Assembly: GCF_964204645.1 (NCBI RefSeq)
Contig: NC_134025.1
Span: forward strand, 26,516,299 to 26,580,298
Length of the DNA: 64,000 bases
Direction: 5' to 3'
Source: Tubulanus polymorphus
Lineage: Eukaryota > Animalia > Nemertea
Under the pieces are notes generated by a model that saw only the letters and a program-made list of their open reading frames with translations, ran no database searches and had not been told where the DNA came from. Shown here piece by piece: positions 17,146 through 64,000 of this stretch. Positions within the stretch are counted from its first letter, which is position 1. Every line of letters begins with the position of its first letter. The translations under genes were made by a program, and so were the position numbers.

Positions 17146-17212
17146 ATGTTGGCAATGTGTGGTGTCTTGATATTCGTTTTATCATTGCTCTACGGAATCG
17201 GCAATGGGCAAG
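17146..17212 (+). CDS. Signal-peptide exon S1 of gene A
   Basis: MLAMCGVLIFVLSLLYGIGNGQ followed by G|gtaag (67 nt, phase 1). Confidence 0.85.
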
Positions 17213-35200: not shown

Positions 35201-38200
35201 TCATGAGTATAACGATTGACCCGGCTAAATGCGCGAATGCACTGTATTTGTGTGCAACTGTATCTCGAGGAACCAACGCAAATTATCCTGCGGAAACCGT
35301 GCTCACAAACAACTATCAGTGTAAAGATATATCAACAACCTCGGATAAAACATGTTCCCCTGGTTAGTGAGGAAAGACTTTTTTATTATCGTACATTTGC
35401 TATATGCTGATACTATTTTGAAACAAAATAAGCATAATGGCAAATTGTTTTGTTCATGATGATTATCTGACATGTATATAAATTATTTCAGATCCAATTG
35501 TGAGTTTGTTTACAGTTTCATCTACTGATCGTTTCATCACCGGAGTTGCAACCACCACGTCATTTGACACGAAATTCCAAAATATCGCAACAACTAATGC
35601 AGATATATCGGCTGCAACTGGGGGTAATATCAACTTCAAAACTAACATATTCTTGGCAAACGCTGATATGTTAATATGTACATTACCGGGAATAACAACT
35701 TCTGTATCCACTGTAAGTAGTCAGGTAGCAATTGCATCAGGAGCCACTACGGCAACCATCGGAGCAACAGCATCAATAACAATGCCAACTGTAACAGCGG
35801 ACTGTAACAATGCTAATTATTTGTGCGCACAACTTGTGGCTGGAACTGGTGCAACTTATACTGACGTGGACGCTACAAACAACTGTAAATGTGTCGATAT
35901 TACTGCGCAGAAATCATGTTTTCCTGGTGAGTTTGTACGGTACTGAATGATAAACCTTTTCATATTTCAATATGATGCATTATTTTCGTTACCTTTTTTG
36001 AAAGATATCGATGTAGTGAGCATAGCCGCCAATGGACCTGTGACGACTGGGGAAAAACTGAATGATCAAACAGCAATTAACTACAAATTCAGCCTGAATC
36101 TCAAAAACGTTGCGACGGTGGGTCTAGGAAATGACATCTTGGAAGCTACTGGGACCACTGATTATAACTACGTAGTGACTGCATATCTGTCTGATAATGA
36201 TGTCAGAGGTGGCACTGCTGATACTTTGTCTCTTGGCAATATTGCCTCATTGACTTACACCTCAGCATCAGCATCAACGGAAAGAAAAGCAGCAATGACA
36301 GCCCAGGCTACACATTCATTGACCTCGATAAATATCAACTATCAGATACCTGATGCAACAAAATGTTTGACAGTGTCGTATCTATGTGCTACCGTTGGTC
36401 GGGGAACAAACGCGCAATATGCAGCAGAAACAGTTACAACTAATAATGTTCAATGTGTAGATATACGTACTGTTATACAATGCAGCCCAGGTTTGTTCTA
36501 AATACCACTCATGCGTCTAACATTCCTTATCCGATAATTTTATGTTTTTTTATTTTACTGAACCTTTTTTTAGATCCAATCGTCCAAGCATTTACACCGA
36601 CGTCAGCAGTTGTCTTTCAACGAGGAGTGGCAGTATCGACGAGTTTCACGATTGTTCTTAAAAATGATGCACCTGCCGGTCACACTGATATACAAGCAGC
36701 ATCTGGAAGTGGAGTGAATTTTGATGTTTCTTTGTATTTGAGTGATGTAGATCTTTCTACTGGTGCCAACCCAACCGTTTCTTTGCCCTTTACGAGTGAT
36801 GTTTCTAAAGGTGACGCTCTGGCGCGAGCTGCTCTTCTTCCAGCTACTGGATCAATCAGTGGTACCTCAACAGTTACTATGCCAGATGCATCAACTTGTA
36901 ATAGTATCAAATTCCTGTGTGCTCATACCGCTACTGGAACTGGAGCGACCTTTACGGACAGAGATTTAACAAATAACTACAAGTGCACCAATATTGTTGC
37001 TCAAAAGTCTTGTTATCCAGGTAATGGTAAGAACTTCTTCAGCTTTCGTCCCATTTCCATGTAGCTGTACTGAATGTTTTGTTTCTATCCTCTCATATCT
37101 AGATATCAATATAGCAAGTCTGACTGGCGCTGCTTTAAATGTTGGTGAATTGATCAACGATAATCTACCTATAGATTTCCGATTAACCATAGGTCTTCAA
37201 AATGTAGCCCCTACGAAATCAAATTACGGCAATGACATTTACGCAATTTCTGGTATTGGCAATTACAATTATGACGTTACAGCATATGTCTCTAATGCTG
37301 ATGTTGGAGCAGGTGGTATCAACTCACTGTCCAATCATGCAATTTCACCGTTAACTTACACAACGGCATCCCAAAGACAAGCTGCATTAGCAGCCGGTGC
37401 GACACATTCGTTGACGAATATTGATACAAATTATCAGATCCCAAGTGCAATTTGTATAGATGCAACTCATCTATGCGTTCAAGTATCTGCTGGAAATAAT
37501 GCAAAATTCACCGAAGATGTGCTGACTAATAATATCAAGTGTATATCCCTTGGAACAACGAAAGTGTGCACAGCAGGTAACGTAACCATAGATGAAGTAT
37601 CCTGCAATGTAATAATTCCGAGAAAAATTGTTTAACCTTTGTCATTTTTGTAATTCTATAGATTGGGACTGTATTAGTTTTGCTGATGATAATGATCCGA
37701 TATACAAAGACAGCCTAGCTACACCAATAACCTTTACGGCCAATGTAAAACACATCGGTCCAGATCCACCGGCGCGAAATATCCCATCAGTTGTAGGAAC
37801 AACAAGTAACTACATATCCTTTCTTTTTTCTTATTTTCGGGGGTATAACTTAAATCTTTACATTTAACTTCATCTTTGTCGCAGGTACAAATTTCGTTCT
37901 CGAGATTCGACTAGCTCAATTTGATATTCGTGCAGTTGGTATAGCATCTGATACATTGAATCTGATTCAGACATCAGCTCCCACAACTGCAGATGATCTG
38001 AAAGTTGGCATGAACTACGGGGAGACAATAGCGTTCACTGGAACGGCCACTATAACTGTGCCATCTGCACAATGTGACAATATAATATACATGTGTGCAA
38101 AAATAGGACAAGGTACAGCGACAGGGCTTTATAACCTCGCGTCGAATGATTGGAGTTGCACGAATATAAAAAACAGAGTCAGCTGCGCTATAAGTATGTT

Positions 38201-41200
38201 ATCACAAATGTTGTGTGTATCAAAAAGTCATTGAAAATAATTCTCGTTTTCATTGATATAGATATGTTGCATTACAGATGCTCAAATACCAGCGTTCACA
38301 AATCCACCGGAACTGACACTGGGTGTTGCTCAAACTGGGGTAGCCCTAGACATTAATGTTAAGAATGCCGCTACCACGGACAATATTGCTGCTGTAACAG
38401 GAACTAATGAAAACTTCGTCTTTACGTATACCTACGAACAAGAAACAGCACCGGGGGTATACTCAGTAATATCGACGCTTACAATTAGTGGACTGACTGT
38501 CGCAAAACGCCAGGTTGGTATAGCGGCTACAGCGACTCACACATTTACTGGAGCTTCCGTTGATTTTCCAGCTTTAACGACGTATACCTGTCCCCTTGTG
38601 ACACATGTCTGTGTAGAAGTACAAAAAGGGACGGGAGCGTCATACATTGAGTCCGCTACCACTGATAACAGAAAGTGTACCCAAACGCAGAGGATGTGCT
38701 TTCCAGGTAATGAATCATTATTGATGGTGATAAAATCAAATCTTTAAACAAAGGCGTTAATGACGTTATCTTTCATTTTAGACCCTACGTGGAAGGCACC
38801 AGCACCTAACAATCCAACTTGGGTAGGACTGGCAAATATTCCACAAGCCACAGCTACTACGGTTACATTCGATGCCATCATATTCAATACGGCTCCGACC
38901 GGACTGGGCAACGATATTCTTGCTGCCACAATGGGGGACAAAAATTATGCCCTCGAACTATACTTTGCATCTGATAGTAGTGGATCTTCATCATTAACAA
39001 GTAATTTTACTGCAACCCTCAGTACAAATGATCAGGCAGCTTTACCGGCTGATAGTGGGACAACATCTGTAACGATCCGAGCATCAGCAACTGTGACACT
39101 TCCTACAGCTAATTGTCCTCAGGCCGATTATCTTTGTGGCCGAATAAAACCAGGAACTGGTCCAAAATGGGTCGACAATGTGTTAACTAATAACGTTTCC
39201 TGTTCCACAATATTGTCCGTCAGAGGTTGTAATCCAGGTAAGCCCTAAATTGGGTTATGATTTATTTCATTTTCAAAGAATGTAATATGTTGATTGATGT
39301 AGATGCATGTTCCATTCTACAAATATAATTTTCAGATCCAATTGTGAATTCATTTACGGCACCAACAGACACGTTTGTAAGATCAGTTAATGTTCCAACC
39401 TCAGGATTTGATGTCATTTTACAAAATATAGCACCCGGTGGAAACTCAATCATAACAGCTGCTTCTGCGGGTAATGTTAATTTCAACATCACTTTGACTT
39501 TGACGGACGTTGATTTAAGCACAGGAGCGACAGCAACAGTTTCCGTAGTTTCAACAACCACTATCAATAAAGCGGATGCATTAGGAAGCGCCAATTCATT
39601 GTTGCCTACTTCTGGTAATTTTGCGGGAACAAGTTCTATTACGATGCCGGATTCAGTAAACTGCAACAAAATCAAATTTATTTGCGCTAGAACCGAAGAA
39701 GGAACTGGTGCAACGTTTACTGATGTTAATTCAAACAACAATTACAAATGCAGCAATATAGTTGCGCAGAAAACATGTTTCCCAGGTAAAATTATAGATT
39801 ATTCAGCACCATCAATTGTTCTCCAATGTTATCATTTTTGATCATATAACTACAAACTATTCCGTTTATAGTTCTATGATTTAGTTTTCTGTCAGATTTT
39901 GAAGCGAGCATTACTGATAAGTGGTGGATTATTTGCCTTTGCCTTTGTAGATGTCGACATTACGAGTCTATCGGCGTTAGGACCAGTCACCGGTGGTGAT
40001 AAACTAAATGATCGTGCAGCAATTAACTACAAATTCACTGTTAATTTACAAAACGTTGGAGCAACAACCGCCGATTACGGCAACAACATTCTAGCAGCAA
40101 CCGGTGGAAACTCTAATTACGAAGTAAAATGGTACATCTCCGATGCCGATGTCAGACCCGGTGGTGGGACGAACACTTTGGGTATTGCGCAAAGTGGAGT
40201 TGTGACTTACACAACTCCAGCGCAGACACAAGCGGCGATGGCAGCTGGAGCAACGACTTCCATAGTTGACGTCCAAATAAATTACATGATCCCACAAGCG
40301 AAGTGTCCTAATGCCGCTTACTTATGCGCATACGTGCAGGCTCACAGTACCGCGAAATACATCGAAACACCATTAACGAATAATTTGTATTGCTCTAGCA
40401 TACTGGCTGATAAGAATTGCGCACCAAGTAAGTTTCTACATCTAAGTTCCCTTCATCTAAAAGATTAAGTTCCAATACATACATTATACATCTACCTAGA
40501 CAATGTCTCGACATACAGTTTCAAATGTTTCATTTAAGTTTTTACCAATCTAAATGGAGCTGTATCTGTACCAGAAAATACGACATCAGGTTCCGATATA
40601 TTTAACGCCACAGCCACTGACGGCAATGGTGATACACTTACTTATTCAATCCAAGCTGGAGTCGGGCCATTCACTATCAATACTGCCAGTGAGTGTGAAA
40701 TATCCACATATTTTCATACAGTCATTTTTGATAATAACTTCTCTAATTGACTACGTGTTATTCATTTTAGCTGGAGATATCTCGTTAACGGGAACTATCA
40801 ATTTCGAGGTTGATCCTACAACATACTCTTTAGGCGTTTATGTTACTGACGGAGTCTACAGCGTCACTGATAAAGTATTGACGATTACAATCACAGATTC
40901 GAATGATCCTCCAGTTGCAAGCAATTTAGCACCCAATGTAGCTAACGCGGCAGCTACTGTTACCTTTGCGGAAGATTATACTGGTCAGGTATTTGATGCT
41001 GCACATACAGATGAAGATTTGCCGGCACAAACAATCACATATTCTATTCAAAGCGTTTCATCAGGCGGTACCAATGTTGCGAGTTATCCATTTTCAATTG
41101 ATGGAGCCAATGGTAAGCATCAGTTTAGTTCTAAACATGTATATGAACAGTATTTCCATATGTTTCTAGATGATTATGTATGTTTTATTTTCTATACAGG

Positions 41201-44200
41201 GCAAATAACAGTTGTCAGTCCTTTTCTTAATTATGAGGCTTACACCGTTTACGAGGTCATCATACTAGTTACAGATGATGGGTCCCCAATCAAATCTAGT
41301 AGTGGTACCCTGACAGTGAGCGTCACTAATGTACAAGAACCTCCTGTTTTCACAAAGCTACCAACAACAGTGAATATTCTTGAAAGTGAGACAGTTGCAA
41401 AAACAGTTTTTACCTTGGCAGCGGTTGATCCTGAAAATGATGCTGTAAGTTACAAATTGTCCGCAAGTCCTTTCGATGGCAAATTCTATATGGATGGTAA
41501 CAGTAAGTAGATTATCAACTATTGGTGCTGACAGAATTTCAGAACTTCTTATTCCTAACCATTCATCACGTAGATTAAAAGTCAAGTCTACACACATCAT
41601 TTTATTATAGGTATTAAACACAATGCTAATCCAGGATTTGATCACGAATTCAAATCAAGCTACATACTTAGCGTTTTAGCATACGATGGGAATGTTCCTG
41701 GTAATGTTGAAAGGTTAACTGTGATGATAGATAACGTTCCCGAAGTTCCAAAGTTTACCAACCTTCCTGGTGTGGCTACTGTCCCAGAGAATAGGGTTAA
41801 TTCTGCAACGATTTTCAAGGTTTGCCCTCAGAGGATAACTTGAGTATTTTGATGATAGATTGTACTTCAATGATTTTAAACATTTCTACAACTTTTTATC
41901 AAAGGTGCAAGCAGTTGACGAGGAAAATGATGCAATCACTTATAGTGTTGTTTCTGTTTATCCTCCCGAGGGTTCGAGTAAATTTACATTGGATTCAGGT
42001 GAATATTTTTTCATTGACAAATAATATTTCATTATACAAATAAAATCATTTTATTTACATGAAAATTATATTTCAAAATAAGCTATGTTATCATCAAAAG
42101 ACCGTTTGTATAAGAAAATCTATGCTATATTAGATTATCTTTTATTTGCAGCTACTGGTATTCTCACTCAATTAGCAAGTCCTCAGTTAGACTTTGAAGC
42201 GTATTTCAATTCGTACGAACATTTGATAAAGGCTTGTGATTCGAGTGGCTGCAGCTCCGCGAATCTAACAGTTGACGTTCGTAATATCAACGAGGTTCCA
42301 GTAACGAGTACACCAAAGAAAACCATTAGAATAAAAGAAACAGTTAGTTCATAATGTCATTTCTAATAAATGTATTGCAGTAAAGAATTCAAATAACAAA
42401 TATTTATTTTCTCCGTTTTTCTTCTTTCAGGAAACTGGAAGTTACACCCATGTTCCAGTCCACAGTGATACTTCTTGTACTCAATTAACGACAATTTACA
42501 CTAGTTTGATTACAATGAGCGGCTGTACTGTTAATGTCGTAATGACTGATCTCGATAAATCAAACGGTTACCCGTCATCATTCTATGCAGGCAAGTAAAG
42601 AAACTACTTGATGTTTGGTTACCAATTGGTTTGCATTTTGGCAGCACTCCATTACTCTCTCATTTCGTTTTACAATTCTAGATATAACAGAAAAGGATAA
42701 TGGTGGACTCTTTGCGACAATCGGAATTGAAGTCGAAATACAGAATGTTAACGACGAAACACCCGTGTTCACATTAGGCTCAAATCCGAGTTCAACAGTC
42801 TCAGAAGATGCCACTTCTGGAACGACAGTATTTTCATTCACTGTTACCGACGCCGATTTACCTCCATTTGACATTTTTTCTATAACTGTCGATCCATCCA
42901 CTTTAGCATGGAACTATTTCCAAGCATCTATGATAAGTGCGTCGGTCGGGATTGTAACGGTTAAATCACCTCCAGATAGAGAATCTATTTCAACTATGTT
43001 AATAAAAGTGTTAGCAGTTGATAGTGATTTTGTCTGGGTTCCTGCAACTATTAATACTGGTCAGATTAACCAAACGGTCACCATCACAAATGTAAACGAC
43101 AATATTCCTGTAATGAGCAAAGATCTATACAATTGGGAAATATCATCTACGGCGAAAATGGGAAAATATATTGGTGTATTGTCAGCCACAGATGGAGATA
43201 TAGGTACGTGTATTGTTTGTAAGAGGATAGCTTCTTATCTCGAGTAAGAGATTGAGGCTTGCTCTTAATAGAATTTGCTTTTTTTTCCATTTTAGAGTTT
43301 AATATTGTAAGTTATGAGTTTCTGTACAGTTCAACTGAGTTCACATTAGGACAGTCTACTGGTGATGTAAATAGCCGCGTTACACCTTTACTCGACAAGC
43401 ATAAATACCTACTCTATGCTGTTGCCAAAGACAATGTACCAGTTCCTCCATCTTTTACCTCCTTGTAAGAAAGATTTAATAACGAAAATTAAGTTAGATT
43501 AACAGATGCATTGAATTCATGTTTCTTTTTATATTCATTCTCTATTCATCAGAGTTAGTACAATAAGAATTGACACCTACAATGAATCTGATGTTCTATC
43601 AAGCTGGTATACGAATAAAACGCTGGATTATTGGATACCTTCAACGATTCAAGACTTCTTAGCTGCAGCGAGTTCTGTTTGTGGAAAGTGTGTGGCAAGG
43701 CTTCACAATGTTTCTGATGTGGAGTACCGGTGTGTTTCCTATTAATCTTAGATCTAACAACGTCTTTTAATTTGTATTCATATTTTTCTCTATATCATTT
43801 CGATTTGCAGTACCAATTCGAAGCTTTTGCTTTACTTTCTACAAGATGATTCGACAAATCTTATTGGAAATATAGGCCGAAGAAAGGAGTTCATGAACGT
43901 TGATTCCTTGATAAATCTGTATACCGAAGATACCAATGGAACTCCAATACAGGCCATACAAACAAATGCCTTGTTTTCTGGGTTTCCCGTTTCGAAAATT
44001 GAAAGAACAGTTGCTTCATCTGAGGTTCCTTATAACTTCTGGAGGGACAATATTGGTGCTCACTTGTTGATTGGATCTGGCCAGTGTATAGCATTAGCTC
44101 TGGTTCTTGGATTTATCGCATGGGCAACCTATAAAAGCCACCCGGGGCCATTAAATAAACAGTGAGTTGAATTAAAGCCGAGTGGTTTAAAAGTAGATGA

Positions 44201-44505
44201 TAAGTAAGGAATTTATAATAGATTCTTAATGCTACTATGTCAATTATTTTCTTTACAGCGCTATGGCTGATGATTTTATATACAGTCGGCGGTCCGTACT
44301 CAATAACAAAATATGGCCTGCTTGGCAAGACATAACACCTGCACCAACCACTTCACCGAGAGTTATTATCAGGAATCAGAAGACGAACCATCCTCTTCCC
44401 AGCCCACCGAGGCGTGAGCCAAGCAATGCAAGCACATCTGATGTTGTTTTCAATATTCATCCGGGGTCGACGGGTGATGGCTTCATTCCTATGGACAACT
44501 GGTGA
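17146..44505 (+). CDS. Giant cadherin-like type I membrane protein, gene A (long model ~6915 aa: signal, 39 Cys-domain repeats, ~7 cadherin repeats, TM, tail)
   Basis: All predicted exons join in frame (20748 nt when the internal signal exon at 25771 is skipped), with no premature stops in any exon. Whether 17146-25256 really splices to the downstream part is an inference. Confidence 0.75.
17612..25256 (+). CDS. Upstream domain array of gene A: A-B-(C-D-E-F)x3, 14 single-exon domains
   Basis: Exons A 17612-18028, B 18105-18545, C 18618-19058, D 19156-19632, E 19758-20192, F 20276-20761, C 20837-21277, D 21369-21845, E 21929-22363, F 22526-23011, C 23107-23547, D 23671-24147, E 24246-24680, F 24771-25256. 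All are phase 1-1, with lengths 417/441/441/477/435/486 by type. Confidence 0.9.
25771..25837 (+). CDS. Second (internal) signal-peptide exon S2 of gene A; starts a ~4790-aa model
   Basis: MGKIVLGLLWICSFLMSTVIGQ followed by G|gtacgt. Same 67-nt length and GQ end as S1, and it is followed by new A and B domains. Confidence 0.85.
26131..40427 (+). CDS. Downstream domain array of gene A: A-B-(C-D-E-F)x4-G-H-I-J-K-L-M, 25 domains
   Basis: A 26131-26547, B 26629-27069, C 27148-27588, D 27684-28160, E 28341-28775, F 28869-29354, C 29444-29884, D 29973-30449, E 30533-30967, F 31169-31645, C 31737-32177, D 32436-32912, E 33244-33678, F 33778-34263, C 34355-34795, D 34886-35362, E 35492-35926, F 36005-36490, G 36574-37020, H 37103-37576, I 37662-37805 plus 37885-38193, J 38278-38706, K 38782-39237, L 39336-39785, M 39951-40427. 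All phase 1-1. Confidence 0.9.
32994..33178. repeat. Intronic foldback (inverted repeat with ~77-bp arms)
   Basis: gataataagataaaaacccactac...cgaacaatctaaa mirrored by tttagattgttcg...gtgggtttttatctaattatc with few mismatches. Confidence 0.85.
40539..44505 (+). CDS. Cadherin repeats, membrane-adjacent domain, TM helix and cytoplasmic tail of gene A
   Basis: Exons 40539-40688, 40771-41112, 41200-41502, 41611-41819, 41905-41998, 42152-42342, 42431-42590, 42682-43203, 43296-43464, 43553-43729, 43811-44161, 44259-44505. Cadherin Ca-binding motifs include PEN, ATDGNGD, INFE, TDSNDPP, LNYE, LDFE, NVNDETPVF, TDAD, DRE and NVNDNIP. Hydrophobic helix at ~44061-44132; ends GFIPMDNW. Confidence 0.9.
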
Positions 44506-45210: not shown

Positions 45211-48200
45211 TTACCAATTATCCATTGGTATATAACCTGTATCGTTATTGCCATGTTTGAGATTAATATTTACATCGGATGAACTCGTTTTACTCGCTTC
45301 CCTTGATGGACCTTTCGGAGTAGAGGGTCGTCGTGTTATGTTAAGAGCAGTGCTTCGAGCGGCCCGAGATCTCCTAGGGGTAGGGGTTCGATTCTGCTCA
45401 ACCTGAAGAGCTGTTTCTTCAATATCCTTAGTGACATTGCTAGTTTTTATTTTGTTCTGATCATGTCCCCTCGTCACGAGAGCATCATCAAGCGACATCC
45501 TGCGTAGATTGATTAGATTTTCAAAAGTTAATTTCGTTCCTTGAAACAAGAATACGCTGTATTTCGATATATGAATCTCAACTCACCGCGATGCTGTTGG
45601 ATTGGGATGGCATTTATAGGCAGCCCAAGCAAGAATTCCTAGGAACAGAGCTAACGAAGAACTTATTCCCATGCCCATAACTATGTGAGCGCCAGCATTA
45701 TCGTGCCAAAAATCATAAGGTACTACCGGAGCTGGTACAGTTCGCTCGATCTTTGTAACAGGGAATGCAGCAAATAGAGGGTTTGTTCTTATGTCTGCCA
45801 CTGGGGTTCCGTTAACAGTATAAAGATCCAGAAAAGAATCTACGTTTAGAAATTCCTTTTGCTTTCCAATATTGCCTAAATTGTTGCTTGTATCGTCTTT
45901 AAGAAAGTAGAGTTGGAGTTTCGATTTACCATCACTGCAAATGAATAGTAAAAAAAATAAAACAATCACGCATGATTTACTGCTACCAAATAAAAACTAA
46001 CGTGGATATACGTACGCTGTGCCTGTGACGTTGTGTAAGCGAGCAATACAAGTTCCACAAACAGAACTTGCTGCAGTCAAGAAACTTTGAATATTTGCCG
46101 TTGTCCAGTAGGTAGGTGGTTGGTCGGTGTACCAACTTGATAACGAGTCACTCTCGATATACGTATCAATTCTAATTGTACTTACCCTAAAAATTCATGC
46201 ATTCATTATAAACTAAATGAATCAAGTATTGTTTTTTAATCAGAAAATGGCGACATAAAAATAAACGTTTTTATACTGACAAAGATGAATAGAAGATAGG
46301 TGCAGGTCCTGCATCCTTCGCTGTCACGTATAAAACGTATTCATGCCAGTCTAGTAACGGTGTTACTAGACTGTTGACATTCCCACTGCTTGCTTCAACT
46401 ATAAATTCAGAAGAGCTGTACAGGAGATGAAACGACACCGAGTTGAATTCTGGAATGAAATGGCGAAGAAGAATAAAAAGTGAAACAAGAAAATACAGAA
46501 TATGAACACCGAAGCAGCCACAAAACCTACTTCCAGCTGATGAATATTACATACCTACATCCGCATCTGACGCCGTGAGGGTTCCTAGGAGTTTACCGAT
46601 AGTAGCTATTGAAGATATTTCCCAATTATAAAGGTTCTGACCCATCACAGGTATATTGTCGTTAATATTGGTGATAGTGACCGTGTGGGTAATTTGACCA
46701 GTGTTAACAGTTGGAGGAGCCCATATATTATCACTGTCGACTGCTAACACTTTTATTGAGATAGTTGAAATAGATTCTCTATCTGGAGGTGATTTAACCG
46801 TCACAATCCCGATTGACGAACTTATCATAGATGCTTGGAAATAGTTCCACGCTGATGTGGATGGATCGACAGTAACAGAAAAAGTGTCAAATGGAGGCAA
46901 ATCAGCGTCGGTAACAGTGAACGAAAATACTGTACTCCCAGGAGAAGCGTTCTCGGCAACAGTAGCAGATGGATTTGGTCCCAACGTGAAAGCTGGTGTT
47001 TCATCATTGACGTTTAAGATTTCAGCTATGATCGAAAATGTAGCAAAGAGACCACCATTATCCGTCACTTTCACATCTGAAATGTTTAGAATAATCAGCA
47101 TCAATGACATGGCCTAAAACTATCACAAAGGACTAAAACTCACAACACATACCAAGATAGAATGTCGATGGTTTTCCACCTGCCTTGTCAATATCTACAG
47201 GGCCAATTCCAACGACACAGTTGGTTAGAGTAAATAAATTACTATAGATACTCGGATATTTGGTACATGTATGGGTGGCACCAGCATCTACATCTAACGG
47301 AACAATAGTGTAGCTCGAAGTTTGCTGAAAAATTTGGCAAACAAAATTTCTTTTTTTTAAATTATCGAAAATATGACGGATTTTGTTCGCTCAAATTGAT
47401 ACTAACCGTTTCTTTAATTCGAATTGTATGTATCGGATAACTGAAATATGGCGCTTCGTTGATATCGGAAACACTGACAGTAAGATTAGCAGTTGTACAG
47501 CTTACCGGATCACAAGCCATAATAGCCTGTTTATACGTATTGAAATATGCTTCATGGTTTAATGCCACATTCGCTAATTGGGTAATAACACCAGTGGCTG
47601 AAAGTGTATAGAAAGATAGGAAACATAGAAAGATAGGAAACCAACATTTAAATTAATTGCATTCAAGGTTGAAGTAATACGACTGCAAGGTCCACGTGAC
47701 ATCGGCTTGATATTTGAATTCGTAGATACCTGAATTAATTTGAAACATGCTTGAACCTTCGGGCGGGTAAACAGCCGTTATTGTATAGTTGATAGTTTCA
47801 TTTTCGTCATCAACTGCATTTACCTACGCGTGGAAAAAATACACCCATTAGACATTAAGATATTGATATTGAAATATCGAAATTTATAGATAATACATTG
47901 GACTGGAATATAAATTCCAGTCCAGTTGCTTATATATTGAAAAAACCTACAGTGAAAAACTGAGACGTATCAACTCGGTTTTCATCGAGCGGTGCGGTTC
48001 CGGGCAGATTCGTAAATCGCGGTGCCTCAGGAACGTTATCTATGAATACAGTCAGAGTTCCAACTGTCCCAGGTACATTTCCATCATAAGCCAAAATGCT
48101 TAAAGTGTAGGTTGAGGTGAATTCGGTATTGAAATTCGGATTCGCGTTGTATTTAAGAACTACAAGATAGAGATGGAACTAAAATGTTCATACAAAATAT

Positions 48201-51200
48201 ATGTTCCAGTAGCGTTGATGTCGGGCCTATATATAAAACATTTCAATATTTCATTGTTTTCTTAAGATATGACAATGTAATCAATCTTACCGTTACCCAC
48301 GAGACTGAATTTCCCGTCCAATGGACTTGCTGATAACATGTATGATACAGTATCATTCTCAGGATCGACTGCTGCCAATGTAAAAAAGTTACTCGCTGCA
48401 GTGACACTTTCGGAAATGTTTACAGTTGTCGGTAGTTTCGTGAATACAGGCGGTTCTTGTACATTCGTCACACTAACAGTAAGAGTACCACTACCCGATT
48501 TTATCGGGCTTCCATCGTCAGTTACTCGTACAATCACCTCATAAACAGAGTGAACCTCGAAATTTAGGAAAGGACTGACGACTGTTATCTGCCCTGTTTA
48601 AAAAAAACCATATCTAACTTCAGATTGTTCTTATTGTTCCCAAATCATCTATAGAATCATTCTGTATTGGAATGTTACCTTACCATTGGCTCCATCCATT
48701 AAAAATGGAGAACTCGCTACATTGGTACCGCCTGATGAAACGCTTTGAATAGAATATGTTATAGTTTGTGCCGGCAAATCTTCATCTGTATGTGCAGCAT
48801 CAAATACCTGACCAGTATAATCTTCCGCAAAGGTAACAGTAGCTGCCGCGTTTGCTACATTGGGTGCTAAATTGCTTGCAACTGGAGGATCATTCGAATC
48901 TGTGATTGTAATCGTCAATACTTTGTCAGTGACGCTGTAGACTCCGTCAGTAACATAAACACCTAAAGAGTACGTTGTAGGATCAACCTCGAAATTGATA
49001 GTTCCCGTTAACGAGATATCTCCAGCTAAAATGAATAACACGTGGTCAATTAGAGATGTTATTATCATAAATGACTGTATGAAAATATGTTGATTTATAT
49101 TTTGCACTCACTGGCAGTATTGATGGTGAATGGCCCGACTCCAGCTTGGATTGAATAAGTAAGTGTATCACCATTGCCGTCAGTGGCTGTGGCGTTAAAT
49201 ATATCGGAACCTGATGTCGTATTTTCCGGTATAGATACCGCTCCATTTAGATTGGTAAAAACTGAAGTGAAACAGTGTCAATGTATATATAATGCTAAAA
49301 TGTGTAAAATCTGTAAGACGGGTGTAGTGCGACTGATCTATGTAATTGTCAAGGAAACTTACTTGGTGCACAATTCTTATCAGCCAGTATGCTTGAGCAA
49401 TACAAATTATTCGTTAATGGTGTTTCGATATATTTCGCGGTACTGTGAGCCTGCACGTATGCGCATAAATAAGCGGCATTAGGACACTTTGCTTGTGGGA
49501 TCATGTAATTTATTTGGACGTCAACTATGGAGGTCGTTGCCCCAGCTGCCATCGCCGCTTGTGTCTGTGCAGGTGTTGCGTATGTCACGACTCCACTTTG
49601 TGCAATACCCAAAGTATTCGCCCCACCACCGGGTCTGATATCAGCATCGGAGATGTACCATTTTACTTCGTAATTAGAGTTTCCACCGGTTGCTGCTAGT
49701 ATGTTGTTGCCGTAATCGGCGGTTGTTGCTCCAACGTTTTGTAAATTAACAGTGAATTTGTAGTTAATTGCTGCACGATCGTTTAGTTTTTCACCACCGG
49801 TGACTGGTCCTAGCGCCGATAGACTCGTGATTTCGACATCTACAATTCAAAGGAATATAATACACCGCTCATCAGTAATGCCTGTTTCAAAATTCGACGG
49901 AAAGCTAAATCAAACAAGGATAACGTTGGAGGAGAATTTGATAGTACTGAATAATTGATAATTTTACCTGGGAAACATGTTTTCTGCGCAACTATATTGC
50001 TGCATTTGTAATTGTTGTTTGAATTAACATCTGTGTACGTTGCGCCAGTTCCTTCTTGCGTTCTAGCGCAAATAAATTTGATTTTGTTGCAGTCTACTGA
50101 ATCCGGCATCGTAATAGAACTTGTTCCCGCAAAATTACCTGAAGCAGGCAACAATGCATTGGCGCTTCCTAATGCATCCGCTTTATTGATAGTGGTTGTT
50201 GAAACTACGGAAACTGTGGCAGTCGCACCTGTGCTTAAATCAACGTCCGTCAAAGTCAATGTGATGTTGAAATTAACATTACCCGCAGAAGCAGCTGTTA
50301 TGATTGAGTTTCCACCGGGTGCTATATTTTGTAAAATGACATCAAATCCTGAGGTTGGAACATTAACTGATCTTACAAACGTGTCTGTTGGTGCCGTAAA
50401 TGAATTCACAATTGGATCTGAAAATTATATTTGTAGAATGGAAGATGCATCTACATCAATCAACATATCAAATTCTTTGAAAATGAATAAATAATAACCT
50501 AATTTAGGGCTTACCTGGATTACAACCTTTGACAGACACTACTGTAGAACAGGAAACGTTATTAGTTAACACATTGTCGACCCATTTTGGACCAGTTCCT
50601 GGTTTTATTCGGCCACAAAGATAATCGGCCTGAGGACAATTAGCTGTAGGAAGTGTCACAGTTGCTGATGCTCGGATCGTTACAGATGTTGTCCCACTAT
50701 CAGCCGGTAAAGCTGCCTGATCATTTGTACTGACGGTTGCAGCAAAATTACTTGTTAATGACGAAGATCCACTACTATCAGACGCAAAGTATAGTTCAAA
50801 TGCATAATTTTTGTCCCCAAGTGTGGCAGCAAGAATATCGTTGCCCAGTCCTGTCGGAGCCGTATTGAGTATAATGGCATCGAATGTGACTGTAGTAGAT
50901 GAGCCTTGTGGAATACTTGTTAGTCCTACCCAAGATGGGTTGCTAGGTGCTGGTGCCTTCCACGTTGGATCTGAATAAAGGAATGAACGTTAGTGTGAGA
51001 CTATTCATTCGTTTTACATAGATTAGAATGTTTATTCAACTTATAGGAAATTACATGCTTTAAGGTAATACGTACCTGGCTTGCACATTCGTTGCGTTGT
51101 TTGGCAAAACTTATTGTCAGTTGTCACGGCATCAACAAACGAAGCTCCTGTACCTGCCTGCACCTCTACACACACATGTGTCACTCGAGGACAAGTATAA

Positions 51201-54200
51201 TCGGTCAACGCTGGGAAATCAACGGTAGCTCCTGTGAAGGTGTGAGTCGTTGTGGCCGCTATACCAACCTGGCGTTTTGCGACAGTCAGTCCACTTATTG
51301 TAAGCGTCGATATGACTGAGAATGACCCCGGTGTAACTTCCTGTTCGTAAGTGTATGTAAATACGTAGTTTTCATTCGTTCCTGTTACTGCGGCAATATT
51401 GTCCGTTGTAGCAGCATTCTGGACGTCTATTTGCAGGGCAACCCCAGTTTGAACCACACCCAGAGTGAGTTCCGGTGGAGTTGTGAACGTTGGTAATTTA
51501 ATATCTGCAAGATTTACTCAAAACAAATAGTGACGATTGATGATGATACAGGTCTGGATATTATGCAAATAGATTTACTTACTTATCGCACAACTCACTC
51601 TATCCTTGATGTATATACAGCACCAATCGTTTGGAGTAAGGTTAATGAACCCAGTTACGGTCCCTTGTCCAATTCCTGCGCATAGATAGTTTGTTCTGTC
51701 ACATTTAGCAGAGTCAACGTTGATGTTTGTACTTCCACTAAGAGTGTAAGTCTGGCCATAATTCAAACCAACTTTCAGATCATTAGGCCCAGAGGTAACT
51801 GGAACGAGCGGAGATGCTAGAGAATCCGAAGCGATTCCAACAGCTCGTACGTCATACTGGGTCAGTCTCAAATCGATGGCAAAATTAGTATCTGCAAGTA
51901 TTCAACAATATTTATGAGGTTTGGTTGATTTATATTCTCGATTTGATCTTGTAAGATTTTATGGTGAATACCAGCTGTTCCCACAGTTGTTGCTATATCT
52001 TGGGCTGGTGGATCAGGTCCTATATGTTTTATCGTAGCCGTGAATGTTATCGCACTAGTAGATCCGCTATTATAAATTGGACTGCTATCATCTGCAAAAC
52101 TTGTACAATTCCAATCTGAAAAAAGTAGAAAATGAATTTCGTTGTTGTTGAATTTCTACTGCCGAATTTTCTTATTTCGTATACAAACCTGCTGTACAAG
52201 CTTTCAAATTCGCAAGACTTTGACATTTAACATTATTCGTCTGAACATCATCGGTGAATTTTGCATTAGTACCAGCCGTTACATTAACACATATGAATGA
52301 AGCTGCCTTGCAAATGGCGCTTGGGATTTGGTAATTCACGATCGCATCTAGGTTAGAATTGCCACCAGCTGCTAGCGCAGACTGTCTTTCCGAAGCCGTT
52401 GGGTAGGAAATAACTGGGCTAGCGACAGTATTTGAGAGCGTGTTGGGGCTGCCTGTTGTAACGTCTACATCAGATACAAATGCACTAACGTCAAAATTAT
52501 AGTTGCCAGTCCCAGTAATTGCGATAATGTTATTGCCATAATCCGCAGTAGTTGGTGCGACGTTTTTCAAATTCAATGCTAATTTCAAATCAATAGCTGC
52601 ATTGTCGTTAATAAGTTGTCCTGTAGTCACAGCAGTGGGTGTAAAAGTAAACACTTCCACATCTGCCAAATAAAAGCATGATTAGAATTTCACTTCCATT
52701 TTGTCATGAGCAATAGATTCATTTATGAACGAAGATTTACATATTTGCCTACCGGGATAACAAGACTTTTGAGCAACGATATTGGCGCACTTGTAATTAT
52801 TTGTCAAATCCCTATCAGTGAAGGTCGCTCCAGTTCCAGTAGCGGTATGAGCACACAGGAATTTGATACTATTACAAGTTGATGCATCTGGCATAGTAAC
52901 TGTTGAGGTACCACTGATTGATCCAGTAGCTGGAAGAAGAGCAGCTCTCGCCAGAGCGTCACCTTTAGAAACATCACTCGTAAAGGGCAAAGAAATAGTT
53001 GGGGCGGTACCAGTAGAAAGATCGACATCACTCAAATACAAAGAAACATCAAAATTCACTCCACTTCCAGACGCTGCTTGTATATCAGTGTGACCGGCAG
53101 GTGCATCATTTTTAAGAACAATCGTAAAACTCGTCGATACTGCCACTCCTCGTTGAAAGACAACTGATGACGTTGGTGTAAATGCTTGGACGATTGGATC
53201 TAAAAGAAGGTTCATTAAGATTGAAAAACAAAGACAAAATCATCGGAAGACGAAAGTTAAACGCGAGGGTGGTAATTAGAACAAACCTGGGCTGCATTGT
53301 ATATCAGCACTGATATCTACACATTGAAAATTATTAGTTGCCACTGTTTCTGCTGCATATTGCGCGTTTGTTCCTCGATCAACAGTGGCACATAGATATC
53401 GAACACTCAAACATTTTGTTGCATCAGGTATTTTATAGTTGATATTTATCGAGGTTAATGAATGTGTAGCCTGGGCTGCCATTGCTGCTTTTCTTTCCGT
53501 CGATGCTGATGCTGATGTGTAAGTCAATGAGGCGATATTGCCAAGTGCCAAAGTATCACCACCTCCGACATCACTGTCTGACAGATATGCTGTCACAACA
53601 TAGTTGAAATCATTTGCTCCTGTAGCTTGTAAGATATTGTTTCCTAGACCTGTAGTTGCGACATTTTTCAAATTGAGGTCAAATTTGTAGTTGATGGCTG
53701 ATTGATCATTAAGTTTCTCGCCAGAAGTTACAGGAGCGTTTGAGACAATTGCCAATACATCAATATCTGTAAAAAGGAGCATTTACATTTAGGAGGTAGC
53801 CAAATTGATATTTTGATAAACGATAGGCTTTCATTTGGGTTGTATTTGGTCGATGAGAACTATTGTTACCTGGAAAACATGATTTCTGCGCAGTAATATC
53901 CGCGCATTTACAATTATTCGTAGCGTCACCATCGGTGTAAGTTGCACCAGTTCCAGGCACTAGTTGGGCGCACAGATAATTGGCATTGTTACAGTCTGCT
54001 GTTACAGTTGGCATTGTTACTGATCCAGTTGCTGAAATTGGTGCTGTGGTAGCTCCTGACGCTAGTGCTACCTGACTACTTACAGTGGATACAGAAGTTG
54101 CTATTCCCGGTAATGTACATATCAACATATCAGCGTTTGCAAGAATGAGGTTCGTTTTGAAATTAATATTTCCTCCCGTTGCGGCTGCTATATCAGCATT

Positions 54201-57012
54201 TGTAGTAACGATGTTTTCAAATGTAATATCAAACGCTGCGGCAGCTACAGCGACTCCAGTGATAAAATGATTCGTTGATGCTACTGAGAATGTTTTAACA
54301 ATTGGATCTTAAAAAGAAAGAAATTGTTTGTCAAACCAAATTGTTTTGTTTGCTTGCGCGAAAAAACCAAACATTTTGAATTCTCGCGCGAGAAAAAACG
54401 GGCCAATTTGAAAATTTTTTATCGTTGTACTAGCCGTATAGAAATTCTTTTTAGTATGGCCCGAATCAGCAACCATTCCAGTTCGTACCTGGTGTACATG
54501 TTTTATCTGCTGCAACTGATCAGTATAGATCAAAGTAAGATTGTCTTAAATGAGGAAACTTACCAGGTGTACATAGCTTATCGGCTACAGCTGATATATC
54601 TTTACATTGGTCATTATTTGTAGTGTCAGTTTCAGTCGCAAAATTGGCATTTGTACTTCGAGACACAGTTGCACATATATACAGCGCATTCGCACATTTA
54701 GCCGGGTCAATCGTTATACTCATGACGATATCAACGATCGACGTAGTTGCCTGAGCTGCCAAAGCTGTTTGTCTTTGCGCTGGTGTTGTATATGATGAAA
54801 TAGATATTGCAGAATGTCCAAGAGTATTAGATCCACCAGCACCGATATCAGCATTAGAAATGATTACTGATATATCGTAGTTGTTATCGGACCCAGTAGT
54901 AGCAAGGATGTTATTTCCTGAATAAACTGCTGTATTTATAGCATTGTTTTTCAGAACTGTCGTGATCTTATAACTTGTGGCTGATGCATCATTTAGTGTT
55001 CCCGATGCCGGAGCACCTGTAATGCTGATCATCTTGACATCTGTAAGAAAATATTGGCATAGATATTTAATATGAATAAATGGGTTATTTCAATGATAAA
55101 ATATTCTTTCGTACCTTTTATTTACAGTATTGATTTCATTAGTCGCCTCGTGGTTCCAGATTTATAGCGTTAGGCCAGTATACTTGCAAGACCCCAGATT
55201 TAGACACTGTTCAAACCCTGGGTATAGCCAAATTTAGTTCTTGAGAACCAAGATCGTTCTGGAACCACGACGACTGCCAATAGCTATTTCTGGATTTGTA
55301 TGATTTAAAAAACGTCATCAGAAAGTTTCAACAAAATCGTTCAACATACCAGGGAAGCATGATTTCTGTGCTGATATATCGACGCATTTGCAATTGTTTG
55401 TGAGGTCTTTATCTATATAAGATGCTGTTGCAGGAACGTTCAACTTTGCACAAACATATCTCATGTCATTACAGTCTGATGTGGCCGATGGCACCGTTAC
55501 TGAAACAGCGCCAGATATTGTACCTGTTACTGCTCCATCTGCCAAACCAATAGTTTGATCGATATCCGAAATAGAGGAAATTGACACAAAACCCGCAGTG
55601 CAAGTTGTCATGTCAATGTCAGACAGAATTACATCTACTTTGAAATTAGAATTAGCGCCTGCTACTGCTGCTATATCTGAATTTCCTCCCGGAGCTATAT
55701 TTTCAAAGATAACATCAAAAGTCAAAGAGAATATGTTAGGTTGAATGTAAACCGCTGTGGAAAGTGGAGTGAACGTCTTGATAATTGGATCTGAAATAAA
55801 GAGACAGAATTTTTCTATGTATATCTATATCTTATTCCAATGTGTTATATGATTTAATCAAATAGTTAAGGTTATATCTGCTTCCTGATCGTATACTTAT
55901 TTGCCTACCGGGGTTGCATTTTTTTACTGCCACTATTGATGAACATTTTACGTTGTTCGTTGAAACAGCATCCGTCCATTTACATGAAACTCCTTCAGTT
56001 ACAACAGCACACAAGTAGTCGGTAGTATAACAAATGGCAGATGGTAAAGTTACAGTTCCAGTCGCTCGAAGAGTAACTGTAGTCGATGAATCTGCTGGTA
56101 AAGCTGCGGCATCATTCGCTGACACTGTAGCCGCGACATTCCCTGTAACTGCTGTTGCTCCGGCGCTATCTGACGCAAAATACAATTCCGTAGCAAAGTT
56201 TTTCGTGCCCGTAGGTGCAGCTACGATATCATTTCCTTGTCCAGATGCAGCTACATTTTGTATTGGTAAGTCAAACGTAACCGCTGTGGCTGTTGCTGCG
56301 GTCAAGGTCGTAAGTCCAACCCAAGTCGGAACTGCAGATGCTGTTGGATCTGGAAAAGATTAATTCTCTATCGGTATAGAATTCTGTTCTTAGTACATGT
56401 AAAATTTAAATACGATTTATATCATCGAGCACTTACCCGGTTGGCAAACTCTTGTTATGGTTATACATGCTTGATTATTAGTTGTTACTGCATCTGTGTA
56501 ACCGGTGCTACTTTCGGCAACAGTCATACATAGATGAGTAGCTGCTGGACATGTTACAGCATCCAGTGCTGGATAATCTGCTGTAGCTCCTGTAAATGTT
56601 AATGTAGCTAGTGCTACAAGACCCGCCTGTCTCTCTGCCAGTGTAATACCATTTATCGTAATAACTGGTCCAATCTGGGTAGTTCCCGTCGCAAATTGGA
56701 ATGTGAAAACATAGTTCTCATTTGGTGAATTCGCGGCAGGAATTGGGGTGGCAGTATCAGCATTTTTAATATCAATCGTTAGCGGAACGGCATTCTGTGC
56801 TTCACCCAAGTAGAATGTTGCTGGACTTGTTGTGAACGATGTCATTTCCAAATCTGAAAAAAGCCAAAAGAATGGTTTTATGATAGTTTCGCAACACTAA
56901 TTAATATTCTGTTGTGAAACTGGATGCCATTAAAAGACACGGGTATTTTCATACCTTGACCTGATACAATCCGACTTAGGAACAACGATATCCACAGAAA
57001 TAGAAATGCCAT
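45211..57012 (-). CDS. Giant cadherin-like protein, gene B (inverted paralog of A); model from the internal signal exon ~2965 aa with 13 Cys domains
   Basis: S 57012-56955, A 56853-56437, B 56349-55909, C 55790-55350, D 55040-54564, E 54307-53870, F 53766-53287, G 53199-52753, H 52662-52189, I 52115-51972 plus 51891-51583, J 51504-51076, K 50970-50515, L 50417-49968, M 49839-49363; then 49261-49112, 49025-48684, 48593-48291, 48159-47951, 47823-47730, 47597-47407, 47324-47153, 47076-46555, 46449-46281, 46186-46016, 45934-45587, 45499-45211. Total 8898 nt in frame, with the same intron positions and phases as gene A; ends GYIPMDNW. Confidence 0.88.
54489..54522 (-). pseudogene. Orphan 3' fragment of a D-type exon with its donor site
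   Basis: atcagttgcagcagataaaacatgtacaccag|gtacg encodes SVAADKTCTPG, lying about 40 nt into the intron after the intact D exon. Confidence 0.75.
55141..55275. mobile_element. Tiny MITE-like insertion in the C-D intron of gene B
   Basis: Perfect 13-bp inverted repeat tcgtggttccaga / tctggaaccacga, extended by agtcg / cgact. This intron is longer than most C-D introns. Confidence 0.55.
56955..57012 (-). CDS. Internal signal-peptide exon of gene B
   Basis: MAFLFLWISLFLSRIVSGQ followed by G|gtatga, phase 1, directly upstream of domain A. Confidence 0.8.
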
Positions 57013-57660
57013 CACGGACGTGTCCGTATAATGTACATCAAACATTTAACAGTTTTACTCGTTTGAACACTAATCAATTCTTTTATATTTGCCTATTGCC
57101 GAAGATTTATGGTTGGTAAAAGATCGAAGAAAACAAATCCTATATTTTATATGTCTCAATATAAAACACCTGCGATCATTTGAGTGACGCCATTAAAAAT
57201 GAACGTACTAGATAAACTTGAAAAAGGGCTATACAAGATAATATAAAACGAATGGCTGAACACTGGAATAATAGTACCATTCATCAAAAATGTATGTGTC
57301 ATATTGTCTGTAGTTTCACAACAATTCTGTATTTGTAGATAAAACGAATAGACGACCCTTTTAATCTTCAAAAAGAAATGAAAAGCTATTATTCGTGTTA
57401 TTCGTATAGCCATTATGTTGTCTGCCATCGCGTATTTTATTATTTTTGTCTGTCACTAATAACAAACCCCGAAATGATTGATTAAAAAGATTGTATGCCC
57501 ATTTCATACGTGTATGAAATAATAAAACATCAGTATTCCAATAGGTCAAAAATTTCTTTAATTTCTTTCGCTAAGGAAAATAATATCTAATCAATGTGCA
57601 TAACACATTTTCCAGAAAATGGTCTGGATGCATCTTGAGAAAAAAAGTTAATATACATAC

Positions 57661-64000
<6,340 letters not shown>

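Follow-up and report, generated by a model that had tools for sequence, protein, structure and literature searches.

We found that a gene on the minus strand of this DNA (gene B) carries an intact internal signal exon and an A-B restart between two arrays of open, conserved domain exons. We put the probability at about one in two that gene B is a nested two-promoter gene, similar to the neurexin alpha/beta genes, that makes a long and a short form. According to this model, the long transcript would splice a D exon (57661) to exon A (56853) and lose the signal exon along with the intron. A short form of about 2,965 residues would start from a predicted promoter in the spacer between the arrays; it would share the cadherin, membrane, and tail exons, and its signal peptide would be cleaved. 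The upstream array would have its own start past position 64000. The likely effect would be surface rods of different lengths from one locus. Positions are those of the window, the whole 64,000-nucleotide stretch that was analyzed.

Two paralogs built from one repeat domain

The window is animal DNA with short introns and includes the 3' end of a numb-like gene. Two paralogs lie tail to tail in it: gene A occupies 17146-44505 on the plus strand, and gene B, on the minus strand, runs from beyond 64000 down to 45211. We mapped 60 domain exons in the two genes, leaving out longer or shorter alternative acceptors at six exons. Every one is phase 1-1, is 417 to 486 nt long, and encodes one domain with four invariant cysteines. 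The exon order in gene A is signal, A B, three rounds of C D E F, an 874-nt spacer with a signal exon, A B, four rounds of C D E F, G H IJ a b g h, cadherins, and a membrane segment. The order in gene B is ...D E F C D E F C F C D, an 807-nt spacer with a signal exon, A B C D E F G H IJ a b g h, cadherins, and a membrane segment. The other introns in both genes are mostly 70 to 130 nt. Gene A has the following features.

17146-17212, plus strand: first signal exon
17612-25256, plus strand: upstream array, A B (C D E F)x3
24771-25256, plus strand: junction F exon, with the donor G/GTAAAT
25257-26130, plus strand: spacer of 874 nt, bridged by DNA contigs
25771-25837, plus strand: internal signal exon, within the 874-nt spacer
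26131-44505, plus strand: downstream part, A B (C D E F)x4 G H I J a b g h, cadherin repeats, membrane segment, tail

The part of gene B downstream of its restart is laid out as follows.

52189-55790, minus strand: exons C D E F G H of the downstream array
51972-52115, minus strand: split domain I, open, phase 1
51583-51891, minus strand: domain J, open, phase 1, resembling the first domain of a short relative
49363-51504, minus strand: exons a b g h, a fused module that lacks a signal exon; its members are older homologues of A, B, G, and D/F/H
45211-49325, minus strand: cadherin repeats, membrane-adjacent region, transmembrane segment, cytoplasmic tail, and stop (45213-45211)

An earlier note had described an internal restart in both paralogs with differing junction domains (F in gene A, D in gene B), and both layouts are read in the sequence. 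Its view that gene B repeats the same nested-start design held for the downstream half, which matches gene A. For the upstream start, no fourth A flank of at least 80% identity was found, and that start may not be A-B. The two recurrences are not demonstrably independent because the split between genes A and B predates the divergence of the junction exons and has reached saturation; the saturation is seen at I, J, and the membrane region, alongside converted patches with a dS of 0.09 to 0.19. Taking the length of a public gene model, P0001, for the distal part, we estimated about 2,965 residues for the short form of gene B and about 4,805 and 6,930 residues for the short and long forms of gene A.

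The top match of a profile search with 22 repeat exons was that model, XP_074662363.1 (P0001) of Tubulanus polymorphus. Aligned one by one, three exon stretches agree with gene B at 100% identity, and the longer matches are less identical solely through the introns that they span. The model represents only the distal part of gene B, exons a, b, g, and h and the cadherin part; it begins within exon J, in a different frame, and lacks a signal peptide. The public model covers only about half of the short form, and the downstream A-H exons also have no database model. We found no protein model of the upstream arrays with an A exon as the query among proteins of 243 to 2,000 residues (0 of 1,501 candidates) or with P0001 residues 8 to 612 among proteins of 2,798 to 5,000 residues (0 of 2,758). 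A mixed-alignment query of proteins of 75 to 2,797 residues returned 4 of 7,990, P0001 and three distant cadherin proteins, none of which covers the upstream arrays. These searches covered sizes up to 5,000 residues, so the absence of a model is weak evidence. Among the papers listed by literature searches, none dealt with gene A, gene B, or the repeat-domain family, which is not proof of absence. A metagenome scan gave a single locus, a bacterial stretch (L001) without a domain-profile match, which was dropped.

The gene B junction and the fate of the upstream array

The junction between the two arrays of gene B has the following features.

57661-58137, minus strand: junction D exon, ending CCG G/GTATGT, with a strong donor and all four cysteines kept
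56854-57660, minus strand: spacer of 807 nt, the predicted intron of the long form, with the predicted internal promoter and the signal exon inside
57587-57589, minus strand: read-through stop TAG, reached after 24 codons if the D donor is unused
57436-57441, minus strand: AATAAA, at chance level
57361-57365, minus strand: acceptor-like site (score 8.1) that gives Asp-stop in phase 1, a possible terminal exon at chance level
57080-57087, minus strand: TATA-box-like TATAAAAG, 75 nt upstream of the signal-exon ATG
56955-57012, minus strand: internal signal-peptide exon, 58 nt, phase 1, from ATG to ...GQ G/GTATGA, donor score 9.3
56437-56853, minus strand: restart exon A
55909-56349, minus strand: restart exon B

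The earlier note had placed the end of the D exon at 57661 (CCGG/gtatgt), the signal exon at 57012-56955, and the start of exon A at 56853, and these coordinates, like all the others that it gave, are correct. It had also named an assembly artefact as a possibility to check. We found that the gene B junction is real in the DNA, since one X1 contig (56696-57893, 2 differing letters) spans the D end, the spacer, the signal exon, and the A start. Three runs (X1, X2, and X3) cover the stretch, introns included, and behave as DNA. Another X1 contig (25150-26292) crosses the gene A junction, and a contig from X2, a second sample, runs from F to the signal exon in gene A. X1 is possibly the source of the assembly, and its contig support is not fully independent. 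Depth in X2 and X3 is low over the gene B spacer. Four joints with short sides of 23 to 37 nt (53552-59062, 55462-58050, 54396-54448, and 56290-56428) are likely paralog mosaics and were rejected.

The signal exon is not a chance pattern. We scanned both strands of the window for signal-exon-like places, with a filter chosen after the three signal exons were known, and found four, three directly ahead of the three A exons and one antisense within an exon. The three signal exons (two in gene A, one in gene B) and their flanks gave no blastn alignment to one another, and despite this all three are still hydrophobic, phase 1, and GQ ended. The gene B exon has a best 10-residue hydropathy of 2.64, and its signal peptide is predicted by hydropathy only. 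An open path leads in frame from this exon to the shared membrane and tail exons. No in-frame acceptor was found in the gene B spacer ahead of the signal ATG, as expected of a first exon. A role as an internal cassette exon was ruled out, as each candidate acceptor in the spacers leads to a stop. The consensus of the TATA box is TATAWAWR; the TATA-like box in the gene B spacer has about a 5% chance of occurring in 90 nt, and the gene A spacer has no canonical TATA box.

We then consider how the upstream array ends. The donor at 57661, which the earlier note had called good, scores 10.3 and that at the gene A junction scores 8.0, compared with a mean of 7.8 over 60 donors; the A-exon acceptors at the two junctions score 9.6 and 6.3. 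A score of at least 10.3 was reached by 4 of 4,704 random intron hexamers and by 12 of the 60 real donors, and a score of at least 8.0 by 19 and 28, respectively. When decay was simulated at 0.2 to 1.0 changes per site, an unused donor still scored at least 8 in 3 to 33% of cases and at least 10.3 in 0.7 to 12%. By hand calculation, continued use of both junction donors would be favored about 2- to 400-fold, depending on the assumed age, and about 10-fold at 0.5. The junction donors copy no other donors of their own exon type, and their introns do not align. Strong donors indicate likely splicing without telling which acceptor is used. Since all 60 domain exons are phase 1-1, D would join A in frame, and the A acceptor is the sole site in the gene B spacer that keeps the frame; we infer that D probably splices to A. 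The signal-exon donor (9.3) would compete with the D donor for the A acceptor: it lies just 101 nt away, a distance modal for introns here, and the D donor lies 807 nt away. Behind H, an older module that resembles A-B (a b g h, with IJ) is joined on in frame and lacks a signal exon, a precedent for read-through in these genes. A crinoid relative, a single membrane protein of 5,459 residues with 28 profile matches, also counts in favor of the nested reading.

The main rival explanation, which we regard as unlikely but worth serious attention, takes the upstream array to be a tandem gene of its own or to stop early in every case, and to code for a secreted protein made of the domains only. The signal exon at 57012 would then be the ordinary first exon of gene B, and the layout would reflect ordinary tandem duplication with domain loss. 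The secreted protein would end 24 codons into the spacer or by a splice to a tiny Asp-stop terminal exon at 57365, and it could coexist as a minor isoform of a nested gene. The 650 nt between the D exon and the ATG leave room for a 3' end and a promoter, and a hemichordate relative (P0010, 645 residues) with a signal-like start has no later hydrophobic segment and ends right after a domain's last cysteine. A close fourth A start was not found in the three DNA runs, in which only three A-exon 5' flanks (17612, 26131, and 56853) appeared at at least 80% identity. Calibrated on 10 other F copies, this threshold recovered one, at 80%, and missed nine, at 69 to 77%; the known A copies are 84 to 90% alike, and 11 to 55% of the same-type pairs of C to F fall below 80%. 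We consider a close fourth signal-A-B start for the upstream array of gene B unlikely, and a copy less than 80% identical would escape detection.

The acceptor-like site at 57365 (8.1) and the AATAAA at 57441 also fit a secreted product, but both are at chance level. AATAAA occurs 8 times in 6,594 nt of ordinary introns and in 54% of 1,000 shuffles; an acceptor-like site such as that at 57365 occurs in 54% of shuffles, or 14% with AT/AC after it. The gene A spacer contains neither AATAAA nor ATTAAA. Ends formed by intron read-through are usually tied to weak donors in human genes, as stated in one study (PMC3708835), whereas the junction donors here are strong or average rather than weak (10.3 and 8.0, compared with the mean of 7.8). 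The same study describes the composite terminal exon of the IgM type, in which ending in the intron gives the secreted form; here, the donor is strong and the poly(A) signal is at chance level. The read-through tails of the two genes (2 and 24 residues) share nothing, and the sole X1 variant within the gene B tail (57627) alters a residue, a weak indication from one site. The earlier note had read the AATAAA (57441-57436) as leaving a secreted product possible; being at chance level, absent from the gene A spacer, and preceded by a strong donor, it does not bear this out.

A second rival is a choice among cassettes as in the chelicerate sDscam-beta genes, in which each promoter would serve its own cassette and the last exon of the upstream cassette would skip the second signal-A-B start and join a later C, E, or G exon. 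Such cassettes, with tandem duplicated 5' modules that each have a promoter ahead of shared constant exons and with cross-cassette joints that alter domain number, have been described (PMC4835542). Both arrays of gene A end in F, G comes after the last F, D and F normally precede C-, E-, or G-type exons and never A, and any skip would be in frame with all exons in phase 1. Nonetheless, we consider this improbable: just two starts per gene are seen, the upstream array of gene B ends in D and not F, the A acceptor is both strong and nearest in genes whose introns are mostly 70 to 130 nt, and there is no Dscam homology. A large array of alternative cassettes is not present, with three A-type starts in all.

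It is slightly less probable still that only the long read-through form is made and that the internal signal exon and promoter are vestiges of duplication. The older module behind H did lose any signal exon (the H-to-I intron is 73 nt and has none). Against this, both internal signal exons keep the ATG, frame, hydrophobic core, GQ end, and a 9.3 donor though their surroundings no longer align, and the gene B spacer has the TATA-like box.

State of the gene B upstream array

The upstream array of gene B consists of the following exons, ahead of the junction D exon.

63809-64000, minus strand: D exon, 3' part; the array continues past the window edge
63117-63551, minus strand: E exon, open, phase 1-1
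62450-62935, minus strand: F exon, open, phase 1-1
61920-62360, minus strand: C exon, open, phase 1-1
61318-61794, minus strand: D exon, open, phase 1-1
60807-61241, minus strand: E exon, open, phase 1-1
60208-60693, minus strand: F exon, open, phase 1-1
59680-60120, minus strand: C exon, open, phase 1-1
about 59509-59559, minus strand: leftover E/C exon end of 51 nt in a C-F intron, 82% identical over 51 nt to an E exon end
58796-59281, minus strand: F exon, open, phase 1-1
58254-58694, minus strand: C exon, open, phase 1-1

The array is scarred yet in frame. As the earlier note had stated, the upstream exons are all open; all 10 complete ones in the window are open and phase 1-1. The 51-nt leftover at about 59559-59509 appears to be the scar of a lost D-E pair, and the array also holds a duplicated F-C-intron unit. 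Following the dN/dS check that the note had suggested, we found a pooled value of 0.15 among the upstream exons of gene B (8 pairs), which is like downstream and not neutral. The value is 0.14 among the upstream exons of gene A (12 pairs) and 0.12 to 0.17 across all nine classes. Gene conversion among the exon copies is patchy. Because copies exchange sequence, we counted private changes in addition to the pooled dN/dS. The three upstream C exons of gene B group together as a separate clade (support, 0.98), and their private changes number 22 synonymous and 9 nonsynonymous. The junction D exon (58137-57661), the most divergent of 10 D copies, has 21 synonymous and 22 nonsynonymous (about 0.35), above the upstream C copies, and the junction F exon of gene A (F24771) has 20 and 17 (about 0.27). 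The divergence of the junction exons was rejected as a mark of a terminal role, as internal exons F31169 and E33244 are equally divergent. In neutral simulations at three divergences, with 300 runs at each, no run left the 10 upstream exons of gene B all stop free (0 of 300 each time); D58137 was open with all four cysteines in 16 of 2,000. These data indicate that the gene B upstream exons are evidently under purifying selection.

The scar, the patchy conversion, and the lack of a database protein for the upstream array in the size ranges searched would fit an assembly artefact or a dead or dying partial duplicate whose recent origin or conversion has kept it open, but we hold this to be very unlikely given the private changes of the C clade, the simulations of D58137, the equal lack of a database model for the downstream A-H exons, and, for an artefact, the X1 and X2 contigs across the junctions. 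The claim of the earlier note that the array is not a dead partial duplication agrees with the dN/dS of 0.15, the private changes, and the 0 of 300 simulations.

Known systems, relatives, and origin

Adhesion genes are known that have internal promoters, each with a signal exon of its own. Beta-neurexin has its own internal signal exon, and isoforms of CDH23 use internal start sites. In all the neurexin paralogs (NRXN1-3), a pair of promoters gives long and short membrane forms (PMC9222181). Genes A and B would resemble them in giving long and short membrane forms from two predicted starts each. They differ in having no sequence relation to the neurexins, a spacer of just about 0.8 kb, and an internal start copied from the N-terminal module of the same gene; both forms of gene A would therefore begin with A-B. 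Cadherin-23, also a membrane protein of the cadherin superfamily, has long (27 repeats) and short (7 repeats) ectodomains (PMC8268283); in genes A and B, the forms would differ in length through their Ig-like four-cysteine repeats, which lie N-terminal to the cadherin repeats. The tandem leader-exon modules, two in gene A, resemble those of sDscam-beta and the clustered protocadherins, but there are two starts per gene and not many, the modules have 8 to 20 exons, and Dscam homology is absent.

Membership in the cadherin superfamily is supported by a PF00028 match of 144 bits (curated cutoff, 28.8) and one membrane segment. The older exons match their homologues with scores of 303 (A-a), 429 (B-b), 408 (G-g), and 306 to 331 (D/F/H-h), and the best match of J is the first domain of the short relative (43 bits, weak). 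The model of the repeat domain is an Ig-like beta-sandwich (pLDDT, 82.7). Its fold matches are middling, the best with a Z of 7.8, and the CARDB structure 3idu (Z, 6.6; rmsd, 4.1; 101 aligned) is tied with many Ig-like folds. Frames of the repeat exons had no Pfam match at an E of 0.1 (0 of 8; CARDB PF07705 included), Foldseek gave no match to the model at an E of 0.001, and all Atlas matches were under 0.9. The model would thus make the domain Ig-like and CARDB-like by resemblance only.

By profile search, the same domain is found in Tubulanus XP_074662363.1 and XP_074650262.1, Anneissia XP_033114395.1, and Ptychodera, Glandiceps, Saccoglossus, Branchiostoma, and Dimorphilus records; these relatives (crinoid, hemichordates, amphioxus, and annelid) are named from 20 of the 150 listed matches. 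The family is an uncharacterized Ig-like, four-cysteine domain of marine invertebrates, and this locus marks it as a family still to be named. XP_074650262.1 and P0018 are similar to genes A and B in having a signal, the same domains (4 or 2), cadherins, and a membrane segment. Compared with these relatives at the protein level, genes A and B differ in carrying 13 to 39 such domains and an internal restart.

The sequence suggests that front modules were added to a short ancestral gene on more than one occasion: one would have been fused (H to I, with the 73-nt intron), and one would have kept its start. The 5' module (promoter, signal exon, A-B, and repeats) was likely duplicated ahead of the gene itself and then reshaped by unequal exchange. 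If the two-promoter reading is confirmed by RNA, the locus would offer a visible route to an internal-promoter design, with duplication of the 5' module caught twice with the inner start kept and once fused. We more tentatively propose, as a doubtful extension, that these genes grow by repeated duplication of the whole front end (promoter, signal exon, A-B tip, and repeats) with inner starts kept as switches. One locus would then give cadherin-anchored rods of about 3,000, 4,800, and 6,900 residues that share their tip domains, the fused IJ-a-b-g-h would be an earlier round that lost its switch, and array length would vary between individuals. The two arrays of gene B are linked by D61794 of the upstream array, which groups with downstream D55040 (support, 0.998).

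Patchwork similarity between genes A and B

Genes A and B are inverted, tail-to-tail paralogs. We found that the similarity between gene A 36491-41110 (+) and gene B 53286-48720 (-) is in patches, with low-dS blocks adjoining high-dS ones. For the exon types G, b, g, and h and one cadherin stretch, dS between the two genes is 0.09 to 0.19, and the b-g intron is 94% alike. The adjoining H, I, and J exons have dS values of 1.3 to saturated. We read this patchwork of low and high dS as gene conversion between the inverted paralogs.

Possible length variation in the gene B arrays

In the upstream array of gene B, a 513-nt contig from sequencing run X2, which behaves as DNA, fuses the C exon at 62199-61953 to a C end, the intron, and junction D (the last D exon of this array) at 58286-58050 (window 58286-61953). 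On both sides of the C-C joint, the contig has 0 letters differing from the window. The joint may represent either a haplotype shorter by 3,666 nt or a converted C, with junction D retained. In X1, two contigs, at 59210-59706 and at 62864-63349, are covered about half as deeply as the junction contig (56696-57893), which is no more than a hint.

The D-E intron of the downstream array contains a 21-nt remnant of a D exon end at 54509-54489 (-), which suggests that this array was once longer.

The D-E intron of the upstream array also contains a 196-nt (AT)n microsatellite at about 63580-63775.

Tail ends and public protein models

Genes A and B converge, and roughly 700 nt separate their stops. 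Both genes end in a common short C-terminal motif (G, Y or F, IPMDNW, stop), apart from which their tails differ.

Shared terminal motif
44480-44505 (+), gene A
45211-45235 (-), gene B

The public model of the distal part of gene B, XP_074662363.1 (window 51504-45211), begins within exon J in a different frame from gene B and leaves out roughly 1,370 residues that the predicted short form would have. For gene A, we found no database model among proteins of 75 to 2,797 and 2,798 to 5,000 aa. The Tubulanus relative XP_074650262.1 is a short paralog with a signal, four domains, cadherins, and a membrane segment.

Other frames in the window

Additional features
1523-3418 (+), numb-like gene, 3' exons (Pfam PF06311, E 3e-25)
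10392-10682 (+), 97-codon frame with a cysteine pair; only sub-threshold Pfam matches
11155-12396 (+), 414-codon serine-rich frame; only sub-threshold Pfam matches

The cysteine pair of the 97-codon frame resembles a transposon zinc finger.
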